Assembly: GCA_000165425.1 (NCBI GenBank)
Contig: CT868207.1
Location: 682,001 to 746,000 of the forward strand
DNA length: 64,000 nt
Direction: 5' to 3'
DNA from: Paramecium tetraurelia
Lineage: Eukaryota
Numbering within the stretch: the stretch's first letter is position 1; every line of letters begins with the position of its first letter. Under the pieces are notes generated by a model. It made no database searches. It was not told where the DNA came from and saw nothing but the letters and a program-made list of their open reading frames with translations. The position numbers and the translations under genes are program-made. Below, one piece after another: positions 296 to 58,360 of this stretch.

Positions 296-1381
296 ATGGA
301 AATTATTGCAAAGAGATGTACCTTATATTTCTAAACCCATCCTAGCCCTAATTACTTAAATTAGCCCAACAATTAAACAGAAATCGAACACAATCAAATA
401 TTTCAACGCAGAAACAAGTCAAACCAGGCAATTAAACTGTCTCCAGAATCAAATTGGACTCTCTAAAAGTCGATAGTCTCGATGATCCTCCATGTTAACA
501 AGAAGAACAAGCTAAATTAAAATAGACTATTACAAGTAGATCTGCTCAATTCACCAGAAAAGTCAACTTGAACAATCACATGCCAATAAAGAAAGTCCAT
601 CATGGGAATTACTTTTTTGATAAAATTAAAGAAATTTTAATGAGTGACCTAAGAGACAATTCACCTATAAAAAAAATGGGTAGGGATGCTCTTAATCAAA
701 TTCATATGATGATTACATATCAAGAATTTATCCCTGAAGTTTCTCTATAATATTAAGGGAAATCATAAAAAAAGTTAAAAATAGCCTTTGATCTCGATGA
801 GACTCTCATTCACACAGAACCAATACAAAAGGATAAAGTATATGATTATCAAAACAATGAATTCGGAGTTTTTATTAGACCCTACTGTCGCCATGTGCTA
901 AAAGAATTGAGTCTATTGGCCGATTTATTTGTTTTTACCTCTGCTAATTAAAAATATGCAAAGACAGTAAAAATATTATTAATTAATACAGATAATCAAT
1001 CTCATTGATCCAGAAAACACATACTTTAAAGGACATTTTTGTAGAAATCACTGCATTACTCTATAAAGCAGGATTTAACTCAAACATTTAGGAATTTTAT
1101 CAAACGACTTTTCAAACATAGTAATAATAGACAACAGTCCAATATTTTATATGTAATCTATTTAGTTTAAATGATTTAGGGGTTAGCCATATAATGGAAT
1201 ACCAATAGCTCCGTATATTGATGATAAAAATGATAATGAACTACTGAAATTGTTAAATTTTGTTACTGAAAAAATTTTATAATCAGACGATGTTAGAATT
1301 ACAATTAGACGATTCTTTCAATACGATATGTTTAGACAATTTTCCGATGGAGTCTAAGCATTCAACATTTTATATAATTGA
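296..1381 (+). CDS. FCP1/SCP-type (NIF) CTD small phosphatase-like protein
   Basis: Ciliate-code translation gives IAFDLDETLIH (HAD DxDxT), VFIRPY, LFVFTSANQKYA, IIDNSP; three short introns. Confidence 0.9.
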
Positions 1382-7339: not shown

Positions 7340-7874
7340 TAGAATTAATGTTTTATAAAATCTATTAAAAATTCATTATGACTTCAAAAAGTTTATTATA
7401 ATATAAAGCAATTACAATTAATTTATTTACCATTGTAACTAATATAGTTTTGATACTACTCTATAAGCATCATCTGCATCCATTCTTTCTAATAACCTAA
7501 ATTATAAAAGGATCTATTAATTATATTATTTTTTATAATTTAAAGTCTCTTTTTATAGAAAATTAATGATTAAGTTGCAACTATCAAACGAATAGTAAAA
7601 TATTTCTATCAATCCTTCAAAACCAACTTAATTGCTTTTCATATCAAATTGGTATTACAATAATTTATGTACTACTATTTAAATTTAAATTCATCAAGTA
7701 TCTTACTGATTTGTATTATTTCCTATTTTAATAAACTCATGAACAAAATGTTATAAATTTTGTTTTTGATTTTCAATTTTTTTATTTCTTTAAGAATTCA
7801 ATTCGATAAATTTAATATGTATTTTTAATGTTGTTCCAATATAAAAATTAACATTATTATATAAATTAAAATTA

Positions 7875-47972: not shown

Positions 47973-48689
47973 TCATTGATAAGAATATTAATTATAAAGA
48001 TATTCATTAATCAATTTATAAGCATCCCAATTACGCTTGAGTAATGATAATTAATCTTATGAGATAGCTATTTATCTTTTTGATGATGTTTTGGCAAATT
48101 GTTGAATTTATAATATATTATTAATTTAATTCGTTCCCCTTTAGATTTTAGGCTTTACAATAAGTTCTGTTTTTTATACAACAGGATCAGACCCCTTCCT
48201 TTTTCCCCTCTTTTCAGGCAATAACTACTCACTCACATCTGAGGTCGTTGATTGATTCTCTTTTTTCGAATAATAAGTGGATGAAGTTTCAGCAGTTGAC
48301 CATTTTAATAGTTTCTTCTTTCTCTAAGGCAAGATCCCTATTTCTTCACTCATAATTTCGTCATTTTCATTGGAAACATCTTCACTATCATATTATTGTT
48401 CTGATTTTGTAGCCTTAAATTCCTCCTCCTACGCTTAATATTTGTCTCTCTCATATTGAGTTTTAAAAACATAAACTTCAGCCTTTAGATTAAGTTTTTC
48501 ACATATCAAATAATGATTGCCAATCTTACAGTCAAACTTGCATTGCTCTTCAAATTTTAATGGTTTGCTCTTCTATTATATAAATGTAAAAGTCAATCCT
48601 TCCTCTTATTTATTTTTAATAATTAGTTTATCAGTTTTTAAAAGATATAACCTACAAGGAGTCAGCTCCTGATTGGAAATGGTGATCAT
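47973..48689 (-). CDS. Hypothetical 238 aa protein
   Basis: Intronless frame, beta-rich N-terminus; divergent from the multi-macro gene. Confidence 0.6.
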
Positions 48690-48713
48690 AAATTAATTAA
48701 TTATAAATATAAA

Positions 48714-51700
48714 ATGCTTTCATTAATTTAAGGAGACATAATTCAATAAAAAGCAGATGCAATTGCATTACCTTCTGATATAGCATTATTAAAAGCTCCT
48801 GGTTTGAAATAATTACATCAAAATGGTTAATAATAATACAATGACTCGATAACAAACCAAAAACCCTTTAGTTAAATTTAATAGACATCTGTCATTACAT
48901 TACCCCTTTAGAATAATTAATTTAAATATATCATTTATTGTATTGTTCCAAAATCTGACTTGAATAATTAAGAGTTGTAATTATCTCTTTTATTAGAGTT
49001 ACTATTTGAAAATATGTAATAATAATAAGTCTAATAGAAACTAGTTTTGACGAAATTACTTTTTTAAAATTATAATCTATCCTAATACCAGTGCTTGGTT
49101 GTGATAACGCGGATTTTACTATATAAGAATTTTTGATGGCTTTTTAATCAATTTATGCAAAATAAAGAGATAATTTGAAAGATGTTAATTTGATATTTGT
49201 TTCCTAAAGCTAATAAGAATATGAACCTGTGAGAAGATTTTTATCAATTAAAACCCCAAACATAGCAAATCCTAATTTTGATAGTATTTATAAAACAGTC
49301 GCTCAGGGATGTTAAACGTCTCTAACTGAAACATACAATCAATTTCATTAATAGAACATTAAAAAAAATGTTGAAAATCAGAAACCAGAAGTATAAGAAG
49401 GAAGTGAAATTGCTTAATATAGAAGGGATTACAATTCTAAAAAATAGAACTAATAAAACTAGGGTAATTATTAAGCAGAGAATTCTCATAATTAAGAAAC
49501 TTTAAACTAAAAAATAAGGTAACATAATTAAAATCCAAATGAATTTTAATAAGTTGGTACATTCAATTAGTCAAATCAATCAATTATACTAAAATCTTCT
49601 CCTGTTATTTAGTCGAATAAGAGCTTTTTTTCTCTCATTATTTACATAGATGAACTTATTTTAGAATAGAAAGATCTAATTAAATTTATGCTATAGGTAT
49701 GTTGTGATCTCAATCAACTTCATTATAAATTATTATAAGATTAAGAAATCCTAGAATAATCTAATTAAGTTTTTAATTACAAGCTTTCTTATAAATATTC
49801 GATGATCCCTAAGGAATTGTTTCCTTTTTGTCCGCCTGAGATGTTAGAGAATTAATAGATATCTGAAACTAATGATTCATATTCGCTAGGTATTATATTT
49901 AAAAGAGTTCTTGAAATAATAAACTATAAATCAAATTAAGAAGATTGTAAATAAATACATTATAATTATAGAATAAAATATGATTTAAATATAGACATTA
50001 TTAGATAAACTAATTTCTCAAACAACCTAAAGACCATTAATAGATGATATATTTAGTTTTTTATTATCCCTTCAATTAAATGAGTAATTTATTGAGAAAT
50101 GGACTTAAGATTAAAAGAATATTAATTATTTTTATAGAAAACGTGGTATTTGGTAGAAGATAAAAGACTTTAAAAATTAAATTATGATGAAAGCCTCCTT
50201 TTTGAACAATTAAGGTTCTGGCAATCAGCAATATTCTCTTATATAAATTGATAATAAACCATAGGATTAGATTTAATTACTAAATCATCAAGAATCTACT
50301 TTATTCACTAAACTTTAATAAAATGAATTTAACTTAGATTGTGAATATGCATAAAGGGAATAAAATTATAAATTCTGTTAAATTGATTGTGTAGTTATTT
50401 CAGTAGATAAATACTAATTTAAATAAAACTTACCTAGCTTTATAAAATTTGATTCAAAATTAGACTATGTACTTGATAAAATCATAACTTTGGCTTAAAA
50501 TGAGAAAGAACATTATTTATAATCAATAAGACAATATGTACCAATATTTGGTTGCAATCTTGTACTTTTGGTATTTTGTCCAAATCAAGATTAGACAAAT
50601 GGAAGATAGAATTAATTAGTCAATTGCTTAAGGGATATGTAAATTATTTATTCTTTAATTAAGACTTTTGTATAATTTAAAATATTAGAAAATTACAACT
50701 TTTTGTCTATGTCTAGATGATATTTGTAAACAATTAAGTGCAAATCAAAATGATTTATCAATGGATTTATTAGCCAAAGCATTTGATGAAGCTTGTGCTA
50801 AGATTCCTGATCCAGTAATTTGGAATGAAATATAATTTAATAACTAGAAGTGGATTGTTGTTAAAAAAAGTAAATGAAAAAAGTAACATCTAGCTCCTAT
50901 GAAAATTAAGATACTTGAACAATCAATAATTATCCATAATTAAGATATTACTCAAATCAAAGGAGTTGATGCTATCGTAAACGTAGCTGACCCTAATCTT
51001 AAAAATCGAGGGGGGATTTGTGGAGCTGTTTTTAGAGCTGCAGGTGAAAATCTATTAGAAGAGGAAATTAACATGTTGTTTAACAAACTTGGGAGAAAAT
51101 AACCAGAGACTTCAGAAGTCATTGTTACTAAAAGTTACCGCCTGGGATAAGAAAATGGGCCAAAATACATAATTCATGCTGTTGGTCCAAAATATAATCC
51201 ATAAGACCCTTAAAAGTCAAAAGAATAACTAAATACATGCATTGTTAACATGTATATTTTTAGAATTTAATTCTATTATTAGATTACAAAAATGTCAAGA
51301 ATATAAAATAACATCAGTAGCAATACCTCCTATTTCAGAAAAGAATTTTGATTTTCCGAAATAGATTTGTGCTTAAATATTTCATGCAGCGCTTCTGTAA
51401 TTTCAATTTTAAAATCCTATGTCTATACATATAATTGATGTGAGAGACAAAGTAGTTGATATATTTAAGATTATTTTTAAAGGTGAAAAATTAAGAGAAA
51501 CTATTCATTCAAAATTAGATTTTGCTCCTCCAACAGATTGTTTAGTTTGCCCTATAAATATATAAAATTATAATTCTGAAGCTCTTAAAAGGATAATAGA
51601 GTTAGCTGGTCCTTCATTCTAAAATGAATTGGAAGAATAAATAAAAACTAAATAAAATTAGAGCAATCTCAAAAATTGCTAAAGCTTTTTAATACAAGGC

Positions 51701-52065
51701 CATAAAATGAAATTCAATAACATCTATCAAGTTTTGTTGATTTCCAAACCATTAAATATAATTGATAAATAAACACTCTTATATTAAGTATATTTTTCAA
51801 TGTATTTATTATTGCCTAAATTAGATTGGTTGAGACTTTTCTGAAGAACAATATCACTTCAATTACAATATTGTTGTATAGTATTCTTCAATAATGTTTG
51901 ACTAGCTAGGAAGATTTTATAAAATATTGTGGAAAGCAAGCTATCAATATATTATTAAAAGCAATTCAGGATTTTGAAGAAAAATATCAGTAAGAATGTG
52001 GAAAAATTACCATATTATCAAATGCTGCATAATTTTGTTCCGAGTGTGAATTAATTTTTAAATGA
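48714..52065 (+). CDS. Multi-macrodomain protein with embedded pseudokinase (~1065 aa)
   Basis: LIQGDIIQQKADAI (Macro1); FCPPEML, DSYSLGIIF, RP kinase C-lobe; DAIVNVAD...GGICGAVFRAAG...YIIHAVGP (Macro3); six introns give a continuous frame. Confidence 0.8.
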
Positions 52066-52728
52066 ATTAATAATAAATTCAATTTTCTTAATACTTCTTG
52101 AAATAAAATTTCAATTAAATATACTTGATTATAATTAATGAGTGATAGCTCCTCCATTATTTAAATTTGATTCTCGAAATAAATTTGAATAAATAGTGAT
52201 TAAACACATATAATCATAAAATATACCTTTCATATATCTTTAATTTCATCTGGATCATTATTAGCATAGTAGGTGTCCCAAAAACCCAAAAGGCAGTAAT
52301 TTTTACAATTGAATACAAAAAGTTTACTTTAATATAGAGTCGTTTTCTATAACCGATTATTAAATGCGACATCCAAAATAATTTTTAAGGAAGCTAAAAA
52401 TTCTTTTTGAAAACTAACAATTTCAAAATATTGAATGCGATTTAAATAAATAAAAAATTATCCTAGAGTAACAAAAATGAAAATATGAATTTATAGGTTT
52501 AAATAGTTTTCAAATAAAAAAAATATTTTAAAAAAAATAATCACGAAACCAGACTCAAATCCTAATAATTAGTTGTAAGTATATTTAGAAGCAATAACTA
52601 AATAATAAATTACTTAATAAAACTTGAATTTTCAAGAAACTTCTTAATATTAAAAATATCTAACGAACTTTTTTGTTATTAGAGGATATGTTATTACTAT
52701 TTAATAATTAAATTTACAATTCGAGAGA

Positions 52729-53987
52729 ATGTGTATAACTTAATTGTATAATTTAGAATGCTCTTAAACTTAATCTAAAGCTTTATCTCATCCCTTTTCA
52801 ATCATTGAGACCTCAACAATCAGAGTAACTAAAAATGATATAGAAATTTAAGATGTATACTACAAATTTTTATATTATTTAGAACAACATTAATAAGATG
52901 TTGACTCTTAACATTGATGACATCAAATTTATGACATGGATAAAGCAGTATTATACAATTTTATAATATAGTGAAAATATCTATGAGGTTACCTTTCAAA
53001 AAAAACAAAACTTTAAAGAAGATAAATTCATTTTTGATATCTACCATGGGAAATTAGGATACTAAGCCCTTATTACTAGGATTGCATAACCCAATTTTGA
53101 CGATAACTATGAAAGGATTGAAACTATCAAACGAATATAAAATGGAGAGGTATTTAAAAAACAAATATTTCGAGATTATGAAATGTCGTAGACGAGAGAA
53201 TAATGAAATTTTTGTTGCAAAAGTTCAATAGAATAACCATTTTCTCATAGAAAGAGAGCTAAATATTAATTTACTTCTCGCTGTAAATCGACATGAAAAT
53301 GTAGCGAGTATGGTTGAATATTATTTTGAGGATGACAAAATAATACTTATTTATCCATATTTCTCAGGGGGCACCTTAAACTAACTTATTAGTGCTAATG
53401 CTAACAATATAAGCCAGCTCAAAGTAAAGTCAATCATGAAAAAAATTTTATCTGGGTTGAATCACATCCATAGTTTAGGCATCATACATAGAGATATAAA
53501 AATGGATAATATAATGTTAGAAGAAATTGATGATCATAAATGTGTTAAAATCATTGATTTTGGATTTTCAGCATTCAAAGATAATTTGAATTATTTATCT
53601 GAGAAATGTGGCACAATTGGGTACTTTCCTCCTGAGATTATTAATGGGTAGTTTTACAATGAGAAATGCGATATATATAGCTTAGCATAAGTTTTTCATA
53701 CACTTTTAACAGGAAATCCAATGTTTGATAGAAATATGAACAGATAATAAATTATTAGATTATCTAAAAATAATTTATTCAAGATTGATTATAGAAATAT
53801 CAAAGAGGTCAAGGCCTAATAACTATTATTTAAAATGCTTGACTTTTAAGAAAAAAGATATGATGTAAAACAATGTTTAGAGCATTCCTATTTTTCGAAA
53901 GCAGTAAATTTGGATTTAAAGTATTTATTTTTATTCATCTATAGAATTAAAAATGTAGAAACCTTGAAGTTCAAATCTCCTTTCTGA
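52729..53987 (+). CDS. CAMK-like Ser/Thr kinase with beta-rich (PH-like) N-terminus
   Basis: FVAK, HRDIKMDN, DFG, CGTIGYFPPE, DIYSL; no GxGxxG loop. Confidence 0.85.
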
Positions 53988-54420
53988 TATCCTGCTATGA
54001 ATATTATATATTTATTAGTTGTTTAAATTGTAGACTTGATAAAATTTTCTTTATAATATTATAGTAAATAATTAACACAAATTTCACAAATTTAAAATTA
54101 ATCAATTCTTTAAAATATATTAATTAATATAATATATAATTAAGAATCTAGTATGGTAAATAGCAAATAATATGTGGATGCCGTTTTTGTTTTACTGTAT
54201 ATTTTCAATAATTAATTTAGATTTTTCTTAGTATTTGATTATTTCATTCACTTGAGTAAATATAAATTTATATAGGGAAGCATTTTTGGTCAAAGAGTAT
54301 CACTTGGATTTTTGGTATTTATATTAAGGTAATTTATATCTTAAACACAAGGTTCTTTTTGATAATTAACCTATTTAAATACTTGGAATATCATAATATA
54401 TATATTTTTTATTTTAATAT

Positions 54421-55227
54421 TCATAATAATGTATGTTTAATTACAAATAAAAATGCTATAAAAATATTTAACCCAACTAAAACACAAATGCACTTCTAAG
54501 CTCTGTCGCTAGTTTCCTGTTTTGTGTTAGCTTAGACTAATTATTATTTTCCTTTCTAAATTCTTGTGAAAGTTTGATCGATATTAAAATCAATACGATC
54601 CAATAAAGTTCCTTGTTCTATAACCAATCGATTCATTTCTATAAATAATTCATTCATTTTTTTCAATTTCTCTCCTAATGACTTGATTCTATCGTTTCTA
54701 TCAAGAATTAAAGTTTCAATATATTCCTATTCAAAATCAACTTTAAAGTTTTATGCTGGTCTTTCTAATTGCACTTGCCTCATCATTTAATTTTAATAGC
54801 TTCTTAATTATGGTGTAACTTCTTTTAAGGATATACCCAAACACATTTTAGCATTTTATTTGATTTTATATTCGAGATCATTTTCACAATCGTCTGTTTC
54901 CATAATTTGTAAATTCTCTTCAATATCCCTAATCATCTACTATACTCAGATTTTAACCTGTAATGCTTAATCAAGTTTCCCTTGTACTAATTATTCATTG
55001 AATTGTGCTTTTGGCCCAACATCCTTTGAAGTCTTTAACCTTTCAATTTCCTAATTTAAAATTCCAACTTTCTATATAGTATCCCTAGTTTCCTCCATTT
55101 TGTCAACCCATTTAGGTGGAAGTTAGTAGATCCTTCGACTACTATTTAGATCTGGTGATTTGTATTTCTATTTCTTCAATTATAACTCCTTGGTTCTATT
55201 CTTAATATAACCTATTGATCTTTGCAT
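54421..55227 (-). CDS. Syntaxin 16/Tlg2-like Qa-SNARE
   Basis: LPPKWVD, SNARE motif EQGTLLDRIDFNI, C-terminal TM helix. Confidence 0.88.
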
Positions 55228-55263
55228 AATTTCAAATTACCAATATAATAATAATCATTTATT

Positions 55264-56848
55264 ATGAAAAATAAAGCCAACTCTTAAATCCCATTTCCAG
55301 TAGCCTATAATAAAATGAACCATTTCCAATTACCATTGCTAGGGAAGAAGAAAAGAAAGGCTCATACAAAAAACCCCTTCAAAACAAAAATCTATTACAT
55401 TCCTGATGACACTGTTATGAGAGTGAAATGTCTAGACGGGTTCTTGATGATCAACGTAACCAATAATGATAATCCTCATGAAATTATCAGAGCAAATTTA
55501 TCAAGTTTAGTATTGGCATAACTTATTTAGGACTCCGTATATAAAGCAGTAAACCTGAAGACTTTCAATATTTTCTAAATCTACAAGATTTGGATGTTTC
55601 TGAGAATTCATTATAATTGGAAGATTTAACCTCATTCCCAGCATTGAAAAATTTAAAGATTTGTGCTAACAACATTAGAAATATTGAAATCACTCACAAG
55701 AATACATTTGAGTCACTGTAACATCTTGATTTATCATTTAACTATTTAAATAAGGAAGCCATAAGTTCATTAAAAAATATTACAGAATTAAAGGAACTTT
55801 ATTTAGTTAGAAATGAATTACTTGAATTGCCAATCGATATGGCAGAGTTTACAAAGTTAGAATTGTTAGACATAAGTGATAATGCATTTTAATCCAATTA
55901 GACTGCTTCAGTCTTATGGGAAGTCTTAGGCTAGATACCTGAACTTAAAACACTTAATATAAGTAAGAATTTCTTAAGGGGAATTCATACTGAAAGGCTG
56001 GTTGTTGGATATTTCAATAAATTAGAAACTTTAGATTTCTCCTATAATATTGCTGAAAACTAACATAACTTAATATGTGCTCGTAATTTTACTAATCTCA
56101 AGAAAATTATTATTACTGGAAATCCATTTGGAATTACTAGAGATCATCAAGGTCTAGAAATGGAAATTCATGCTAGAACTGGAGGTATTTTAATAAATGA
56201 GGAGATTGAAAAATCCTATCTTAAGAAACCAAAGGTTAAGAGACCTCCCTGTAAATTTGAATAATTAAAGAGAGTTGAAAATGATATTCTAAAATTGCCA
56301 GTTATTGAATAATCTAAAGATGGACTCTTATTAAATAATGAGGAGGAATAATCTCAAATTGATGAGAACTAGGAGGACAATATGTTTGTAACTGAAAATT
56401 AACAAATTAAATAACAATAATAAAAATTATAATAACAATATTAATTATTAAGCAACAATTAAAAACCATCAACATATGAAGAATTCAAAAAATTAGCTTA
56501 AGAAATATTAGGTGATAGCAAAGAGTATGATTAAAATTAAAATTCATCTGGTAGACCAGTATTAGACTTAACAAAAGCATATCAACAACTTAAAAGTGTT
56601 ATCAATAAACCAGAAGTTGTGGATTATGAAGATTATAAAGAGCCTAATTATATGAAACCTACAGCAAGTATTCCAAGATATAAATATTAATGTATTAAAT
56701 ATCCTTATTTCTAATAGAAGTGGATGATCCTGAAGACGAAAGCATTTAAAAAAGAACTGATAATAACAACCTCAATTCAGAAGAGAATGAAGATTTCAAT
56801 CTTGAATTATTATAGCAAGGATAAAACTAAACACAAATTTAATAATGA
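55264..56848 (+). CDS. XRRA1-like leucine-rich repeat protein
   Basis: LDGFLM...LDVSENSL...FPALKNL...LDLSFNYL LRR series, ITGNPF. Confidence 0.75.
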
Positions 56849-57119
56849 CCAGATACCTGATTATTTGATATTTTTACAATTCAAATTATTAATTTCAATA
56901 TCATTTAATATTAAATAAGTAAGAGTTCAATGTGCTAATTCTTAAACAAAAATTATAAATAAATATCAATAGTTCTTTCATAATTAATACAATCTATTAG
57001 ACAAATGCACACATTAAATCTTTAAAAGTATTCAATTTTTAAAAACTTCTTATATAAAGATTGTAAGTCATCATATTATGTAAATTGTAATACAAAAAAA
57101 TTAATAACATATTTTTAAT

Positions 57120-57721
57120 ATGCTTAATTATCTTATAAGGATGTAGAGATTTTCTGTCAAGATAATAAAAGAGAATATTGTCAAATTAGTAGATGTTGAT
57201 GCTATTGTAAATGCGGCTAACTAAGAATTACTTCCTGGAGGTGGAGTTTGTGGTGCAATATTCTAAGCTGCGGGAAGAGAATTGGAGAGGGAATGCTAAT
57301 AATATATTTAGCAATATGGAATTGTACCCACATCTAAATTAGCTGTTACAAGTAGCTGTTAACTAAAAAAAAATAACATAAAATATATCATTCATGCAGT
57401 TGGTCCAAAATACTTTTAGTCTTCGAGTCCAGAAGATGAATTGCAAATCTGTGTAAACAATATGTATTTTGTTTCCATAAATATAAAACTAGTCTCAATT
57501 AATCATTCAATGTATTGGAATTGAAATCGGTTGCTATTCCAGCTATTTCAAGTGGAATTTACGGGTTTCCAAAAGGGTTGTGTGCATAGATATTTAAGCT
57601 TGTTATTGAAGAATATCAAAAGGATACATCAAATAAATAGGGGGAGATCATTTTATGCAATTTTGATTAAGAAACTACAACAATATTTCAAAAAGTATTC
57701 TAGTAATAAAACTCATTTTGA
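57120..57721 (+). CDS. Stand-alone MacroD-type macrodomain protein (putative ADP-ribosylhydrolase)
   Basis: DAIVNAANQELLPGGGVCGAIFQAAG, YIIHAVGP, VAIPAISSGIYGFP; one intron 57464-57492. Confidence 0.92.
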
Positions 57722-58360
57722 TACCATCTATAATTATATGTGTTTAAATATTTTTATATAAATTTATTAATTTTAATGTCCTAGAATTTAAATCTAAGAG
57801 ATAATGTCTATATCTTGAAATAATTGATTGTTAAATTAAAATATTATTGTAAAGATGATATTTTATAAAAAGGAGAAATTTTTATAAAATCTTAATGAAT
57901 TAAACTTGAATTAAGAAGAAATCTATGATTTCTAATAATAATCTTCTTTTTAAACAGGAAGAAATAATAAAACCCTTATTTCCAATAGTCTTTAAAAGTA
58001 AAAAGGTTAAAAATTCATGAAATAATTTGCTTCTAATTTTTTGAATATTTTTATTAATTGATTAATCAACTTATGTTTTGTCTTAAAGTCTTTAATAATA
58101 TTTTACAAATCACTATTAAACTCATCAAAGATTTCATTGTTCTAGGCTTAATTAGATTTAAAAATATAAATGGATAATAAATTCTAACAGATTTCTAAGA
58201 TTGAGTTAATTTTCTATATTTATTACTATCAATAAATAAAAATCATGATTTATGGAAAATAAATTTTGCACAATTAGAATTCTTCAAAATATTTGAAAAT
58301 GAAATGGATGCTAATTTAAAATTAAATAATTAAATTAGTATAATTTGATAATTATTCAAA

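Follow-up and report, generated by a model that had tools for sequence, protein, structure and literature searches.

The window, a 64,000-nucleotide stretch of A+T-rich Paramecium tetraurelia DNA (C224, positions 682001–746000) translated with genetic code 6, carries two plus-strand genes, here called gene A and gene B, both of which are deposited as uncharacterised (GSPATT00001526001 and GSPATT00001530001, respectively). A duplicate of the region, collinear with it and 71–88% identical in nucleotide sequence, lies on C557. The features are as follows.

48714..52065, plus strand: gene A, seven exons, 1064 residues, deposited as GSPATT00001526001
48714–49015, 49045–49946, 49972–50638, 50664–50869, 50894–51251, 51283–51801 and 51825–52065, plus strand: exons of gene A
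48714..49252, plus strand: macro1, residues 1–170, diverged; hhalign E 1.4e-11 to a macro profile and 4.7e-10 to macro3
49016..49044, plus strand: shared intron of macro1 (Ile101), phase 2, from the sequence
49628..50147, plus strand: relic resembling a kinase C-lobe, residues 296–460, a weak assignment
49947..49971, plus strand: phase-1 intron away from the shared position, spliced in X5
50361..50868, plus strand: macro2, residues 532–692, the most diverged unit
50639..50663, plus strand: shared intron of macro2 (Ile624), phase 2, spliced in X3 and X5
50870..50893, plus strand: phase-1 intron separating macro2 from macro3, spliced in X3 and X5, kept on C557
50914..51481, plus strand: macro3, residues 700–878, MacroD-like; the protein scores Pfam Macro E 6.7e-31
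51252..51282, plus strand: shared intron of macro3 (Ile812; Val on C557), spliced in X21, X3 and X5
51515..52062, plus strand: macro4, residues 890–1064, a diverged macrodomain
51802..51824, plus strand: shared intron of macro4 (Ile985), phase 2, spliced in X3
57120..57721, plus strand: gene B, stand-alone MacroD-like gene, 190 residues from the ATG at 57120
57464..57492, plus strand: shared intron of gene B, phase 2, spliced in X3

The seven-exon model of gene A is free of stops over its 1064 residues, is identical to the deposited P. tetraurelia protein, and reads as macro1, a Q/N linker, a weak kinase-lobe relic and then macro2, macro3 and macro4 in a row. The deposited gene B protein begins at 57141 and has 183 residues; the in-frame ATG at 57120, seven codons upstream, agrees with the 190-residue orthologs and lies inside an X3 contig (57113–57729). 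The start codon of gene A faces the apparent ATG of a minus-strand neighbour head to head (48687–48716, 24 nt apart), an arrangement that recurs on C557 with a spacing of 37 nt. Directly downstream of gene A, at 52684–53987, is a protein kinase gene (Pkinase E 3e-47) that has a duplicate on C557 and in which an intron at 53921 is supported by RNA.

A first-pass annotation of this sequence had proposed that five macrodomains share one phase-2 intron splitting an Ile codon. All five introns are indeed present at the coordinates it gave, with GT..AG borders and lengths of 29, 25, 31, 23 and 29 nt; the split codons (ATT, ATA, ATA, ATA and ATT) all encode Ile in phase 2, and the residues listed upstream of each agree with the sequence. 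Two phase-1 introns of gene A, 49947–49971 and 50870–50893, had been missed, and both are spliced. Splicing was assessed by comparing two raw polyA runs and two contig sets with positions 48300–58100; the RNA status of the contig sets is a guess, the contigs do lack introns, and the raw runs are shallow over gene A (bin depth 0–1.5). Single contigs span 49077–51251 and 50248–52044 of gene A. The RNA junctions by which the proposal was to be checked were recovered for four of the five shared introns: 25 nt are left out at 50639 in X3 and X5, the intron 51252–51282 is removed in two reads of X21 as well as in X3 and X5, and X3 lacks the 23 nt at 51802 and the 29 nt at 57464. The fifth, 49016–49044, is bridged by no read or contig among the four runs. 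An X3 contig starts exactly at 49045, the first base after this intron, as we would expect at a splice branch, and the sole alternative acceptor for its donor (49037) would throw exon 2 out of frame. We accept this intron since the reading frame requires it, the deposited model has it and the C557 duplicate keeps it.

Pfam Macro scores above the cut-off for macro3 and gene B. Exon 1 of gene A, scanned alone, gave no Pfam match, nor did the exons of macro2 and macro4. In macro1, LPSD replaces the NAAN motif and the glycine loop is lost. Among the look-alikes returned for macro4 by the Atlas language model, 25 of 30 are Macro (0.90), and macro4 is likely a macrodomain; for macro2 the look-alikes are Macro clusters at 0.87–0.88, which we treat as a lead only. 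Residues 296–460 weakly resemble a kinase C-lobe: Pfam Pkinase E-values are 6e-4 to 1.3e-3, under the curated cut-off, the best PDB match is a kinase (E 0.045), and the stretch contains just a PPE/DSYSLG C-lobe-like part, with no HRD, DFG or N-lobe. No PARP, WWE, RRM or KH domain was found in gene A by the Pfam scan; a PARP domain match was found in none of six proteins scanned, and gene A stops at 52065, after macro4.

The equivalence of the five intron sites was examined with alignments blind to introns. When each domain was aligned to a profile of 117 mostly prokaryote-like macrodomains, the five Ile fell on the same template residue, the match being strong for macro3, gene B and macro1 (E 1e-11; 1.4e-11 over 153 columns) and not significant for macro2 (hhalign E 0.19) and macro4 (E 0.085). 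In MAFFT alignments with six random sets of 30 such proteins in three modes each, each of the 18 runs put all five intron codons in the same column; column-shuffled domains reached one column in 0/25, 1/25 and 0/25 controls (1/75). Moreover, in a model of the 559-residue C557 protein (mean pLDDT 79) macro2, macro3 and macro4 each present a strand, then a long helix, then a strand; the intron residue sits in the helix, 6–7 residues before its end and 11–12 residues before the next strand. The macro2 part has a macro-like order of elements, with pLDDT 64–90 by block. The same model was used for fold searches, whose match lists were filled by macro3; the macro1+2 pair of PARP14 aligns over its macro3 and macro4 (324–332 residues, rmsd about 18). 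A full-length AlphaFold model of gene A, from six sequences, was poor (pLDDT 38).

The non-significant hhalign values for macro2 and macro4, the missing Pfam matches on their exons and an Atlas score below 0.9 for macro2 would suit a partial artefact, in which one or both of these units are not macrodomains and the alignment forces the intron match. We hold this to be very improbable, given the 18 of 18 blind alignments against 1 of 75 shuffles, the Atlas result for macro4 and the same order of strands and helix in the model. The proposal that the degenerate units are macrodomains is thus supported, clearly for macro1 by its profile match, and with likelihood rather than certainty for macro4 and macro2. 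The idea that the shared intron itself speaks for this identity is supported too: for macro2 it forms a real part of the evidence.

A genome search for Macro domains gave at least 12 matches, four in the window, three on C557 and five elsewhere (C28, C51, C29, C41 and C52). In all five of the latter a single frame continues across the homologous codon with no insertion, and the C51 locus has Ile in the intron column, yet no intron. Read by eye, C28 and C51 each contain a long frame uninterrupted by introns, in which a macrodomain precedes sequence resembling WWE and, in the case of C28, also PARP; these two are probably the genome's macro-PARP type. Searches of the genome with the macro1, macro2 and macro4 exons returned the C557 copy alone, plus one match at E 0.13. 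On C557, all four shared introns of the array are kept at the same codons, that of macro1 with a length of 23 nt and that of macro3 within a Val codon, so that this intron was kept through a change of residue; splicing of the macro2–4 introns reproduces the deposited 559-residue protein. This protein comprises macro2–4 only, and orthologs elsewhere have 1147–1153 residues; the C557 array is split by an assembly gap of Ns (L013, about 7675–7824) with a short repeat on both sides. The two duplicates differ by a dS of 0.7–0.9, which we take to fit the recent whole-genome duplication. An intact partner of gene B is absent from C557, where a decayed relic of its 5' part was found (E 1.8e-5):

L013 of C557, about 464–560, minus strand: gene B 5' relic, 69% identity over 97 nt

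Gene B is therefore older than the duplication.

Two further explanations of the shared position bear on these comparisons. Introns could have been gained independently at a preferred AT–GT site, or gene conversion could have carried the intron between domains that had already diverged. AT precedes all five shared introns and, of five further spliced introns in the vicinity, one; parallel gain is put at about 5–10% of shared positions between distant species in the part of PMC3488318 available to us. Assuming an unmeasured density of one intron per 400–600 nt, the chance of three further gains at one site would be 5e-9 to 2e-8 under uniform entry and still 2e-6 to 6e-6 if entry were restricted to sites after AT; the intronless Ile codon of C51 also speaks against independent gain, and the domains are too diverged for a recent conversion event. 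We regard either route as highly unlikely. Somewhat less remote, but still improbable, is that the intron is an old one, shared across ciliates or older still, and was simply retained, in which case it would mark homology without dating anything and no Paramecium-specific radiation would follow. A Stentor macro protein exists, and gene structures were compared within the P. tetraurelia genome alone, both of which leave room for such a history; against it stand the absence of the intron from all five other macro loci of this genome, the whole array having been found only in species of the P. aurelia complex, and the fact that outside Paramecium the closest named relatives of gene B are prokaryotic, with at most 48% identity. 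A horizontal origin of gene B is not claimed: its nearest named matches are prokaryotic, but the Stentor protein nests among them.

We consider it very probable that the five domains descend by DNA-level duplication from one intron-bearing gene. A single MacroD-like gene, already holding the phase-2 intron, would have given rise by copying to both the four-domain array and the gene that stands alone, earlier than the genome duplication behind the C224/C557 pair, and the intron would have been carried along, being retained in every intact copy examined. The positions, the splicing of four of the five introns and the synteny are observed; from them we infer a single origin of the intron.

The order of the copying steps is less constrained. 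A branch uniting gene B and macro3 has an SH-aLRT of 88 in a quick tree of 83 rows and 92/95 in a careful tree of 29 rows, and falls below 80 once macro2 and macro4 are included. Macro1, on a long branch, is not placed by the trees; the data do not reject a clade that joins it to gene B and macro3 (p-AU 0.225), and it matches macro3 with an hhalign E of 5e-10. Macro2 and macro4 group in the tree, with their long branches flagged, match each other with an hhalign E of 0.0016 (each against macro3, 0.19 and 0.14) and share a helix inserted after the SIAIP-equivalent strand, so that they look like sisters. The first-pass annotation had read the array as the product of serial duplication; the DNA-level copying of one intron-bearing gene is well supported, but a serial order is one possibility among others, since macro2 resembles macro4 and macro1 resembles macro3 and the duplication of a two-domain block fits equally well. 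Both a doubling from one to two to four and the stepwise addition of domains are possible.

Sequence constraint and motifs differ among the copies. The NAAN, GGGVCG and GI[YF]GFP motifs are kept in all five gene B orthologs (GIYGFP in the window copy) and in all four proteins with a macro3 of the C557 type; the GIY/GIF loop is taken as part of the MacroD-like signature. The window macro3 reads NVAD, RGGICG and EKNFDFP, and the three proteins with a macro3 of this type lack NAAN, GGG and GIY and show NV[AT]D, [RQ]GGIC and [KR]N[FC]DFP instead. The classic xDx(4)H dyad is missing in gene B and in the C557 macro3, which have Cys and Phe there. Macrodomains usually carry an adenine-binding Asp in GDIT, where gene B has Asn (ENIV). 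On these motifs gene B and the C557 macro3 are quite likely ADP-ribose hydrolases of the MacroD-like class, and the window macro3 is, on balance, predicted to be hydrolase-dead. Macro1, macro2 and macro4 have probably lost the nucleotide-binding loops and may well be retained as modules for protein interaction or structure. Comparing the duplicates gives a dN/dS of 0.69 for macro1, 0.30 for macro2, 0.37 for macro3 and 0.25 for macro4; the values for macro2 and macro4 imply that diverged domains are maintained rather than decaying. They are as conserved as macro3, so the word 'degenerate' applied to them earlier is right in the sense of strong divergence and not in that of decay. Gene B is 92–95% identical among three species and 88% identical to its P. 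sonneborni ortholog, and the window-type arrays are 46–89% identical between species, depending on the region. One homologue search excluded proteins over 188 residues. A 63-residue Logan protein, which is 77% identical to the gene B N-terminus and has the same KGVDAIVN spacing as macro3, may represent a truncated prediction from some other ciliate.

The motif split, together with the mixture of hydrolytic and non-hydrolytic macrodomains in PARP14, leads us to suggest that the array could act as an eraser plus scaffold in ADP-ribose signalling, like the macro cassette of PARP14 and PARP9 without a PARP domain, and that its two duplicates would have diverged in activity. A bolder version, which we think doubtful, is that Paramecium built a PARP14-style, fast-evolving array from one prokaryote-like MacroD gene independently of animals, with a pseudokinase lobe and three pseudo-macrodomains; each duplicated block would keep one domain with a hydrolase signature (the stand-alone gene on C224, macro3 on C557), and the window array would be a dead scaffold or decoy, possibly against symbionts or viruses.

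Only P. tetraurelia, P. octaurelia, P. pentaurelia and P. primaurelia were found to have the architecture in full. A search of 1.84 billion representatives gave no full-length match beyond the two P. tetraurelia copies; the 18 matches scanned were made via the macro domains, and most of these proteins have several macro domains together with Deltex, PARP, RRM or KH domains. A metagenome scan for the intron-bearing motif yielded one match, not a macrodomain gene. No literature on these genes was found in a search to which subscription journals and supplements were outside. In the portions seen of the respective papers, a P. tetraurelia macro-PARP is mentioned (PMC4245714), no such array is mentioned (PMC2964712), and intron phases are described as fairly even in most ciliates of the group (PMC13685798). 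Shared introns in duplicated domains are a known signature, and this array was not found in print. The principle being known, the value lies in the example and in a testable split of activity. Here the intron marks homology for two domains that Pfam and profile comparison miss, and the genes offer a clean, small-scale example of how a domain array grows and how its copies diverge after duplication. The genes also constitute an unstudied ciliate set of ADP-ribose proteins, in which a conserved single enzyme, a duplicate array with the motifs and an array without them can be compared.

Among known systems, gene B and the C557 macro3 resemble MacroD1/2, E. coli YmdB, Oceanobacillus MacroD and AF1521 in their NAAN, triple glycine and GIYGFP motifs, and macro3 of the C557 model superposes on 5l9k with a Z of 26.9 and an rmsd of 1.8 over 187 residues. 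They differ in the Cys of GGGVCGAIF/GGGVCGSIF, where the classic MacroD-like motif has the catalytic Asp; the window macro3, unlike MacroD-like hydrolases, is missing the motifs. According to the accessible text of PMC7729036, NAAN, the triple glycine and Asp/His or Cys catalytic variants have been described, the Cys in place of the catalytic Asp in Togaviridae. Gene A itself recalls PARP14 and PARP9, which likewise combine tandem macrodomains, one of hydrolase type with non-hydrolytic units; in PARP14, as far as the consulted part of PMC10499325 goes, MD1 is active and MD2 and MD3 are not. PARP14 macro1+2 is also the top Foldseek match of the C557 model and the top PDB sequence match of gene B. 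Unlike these proteins, gene A showed no PARP, WWE, RRM or KH domain and carries the kinase-lobe-like relic, and its non-canonical domains have diverged much further; the PARP14-like macro gene of this genome probably lies at another locus (C28), which is without the intron. No sign of exon shuffling was seen at the shared intron. Duplicated repeats that keep equivalent introns after their similarity has faded are known, in the sections available, from aphid megacycle genes and from the 90-bp LRR exons of Tetrahymena with phase-2 introns (10.1101/2021.09.24.461719, PMC6564038); those are many short exon repeats, whereas here one mid-domain intron recurs in five large globular domains.
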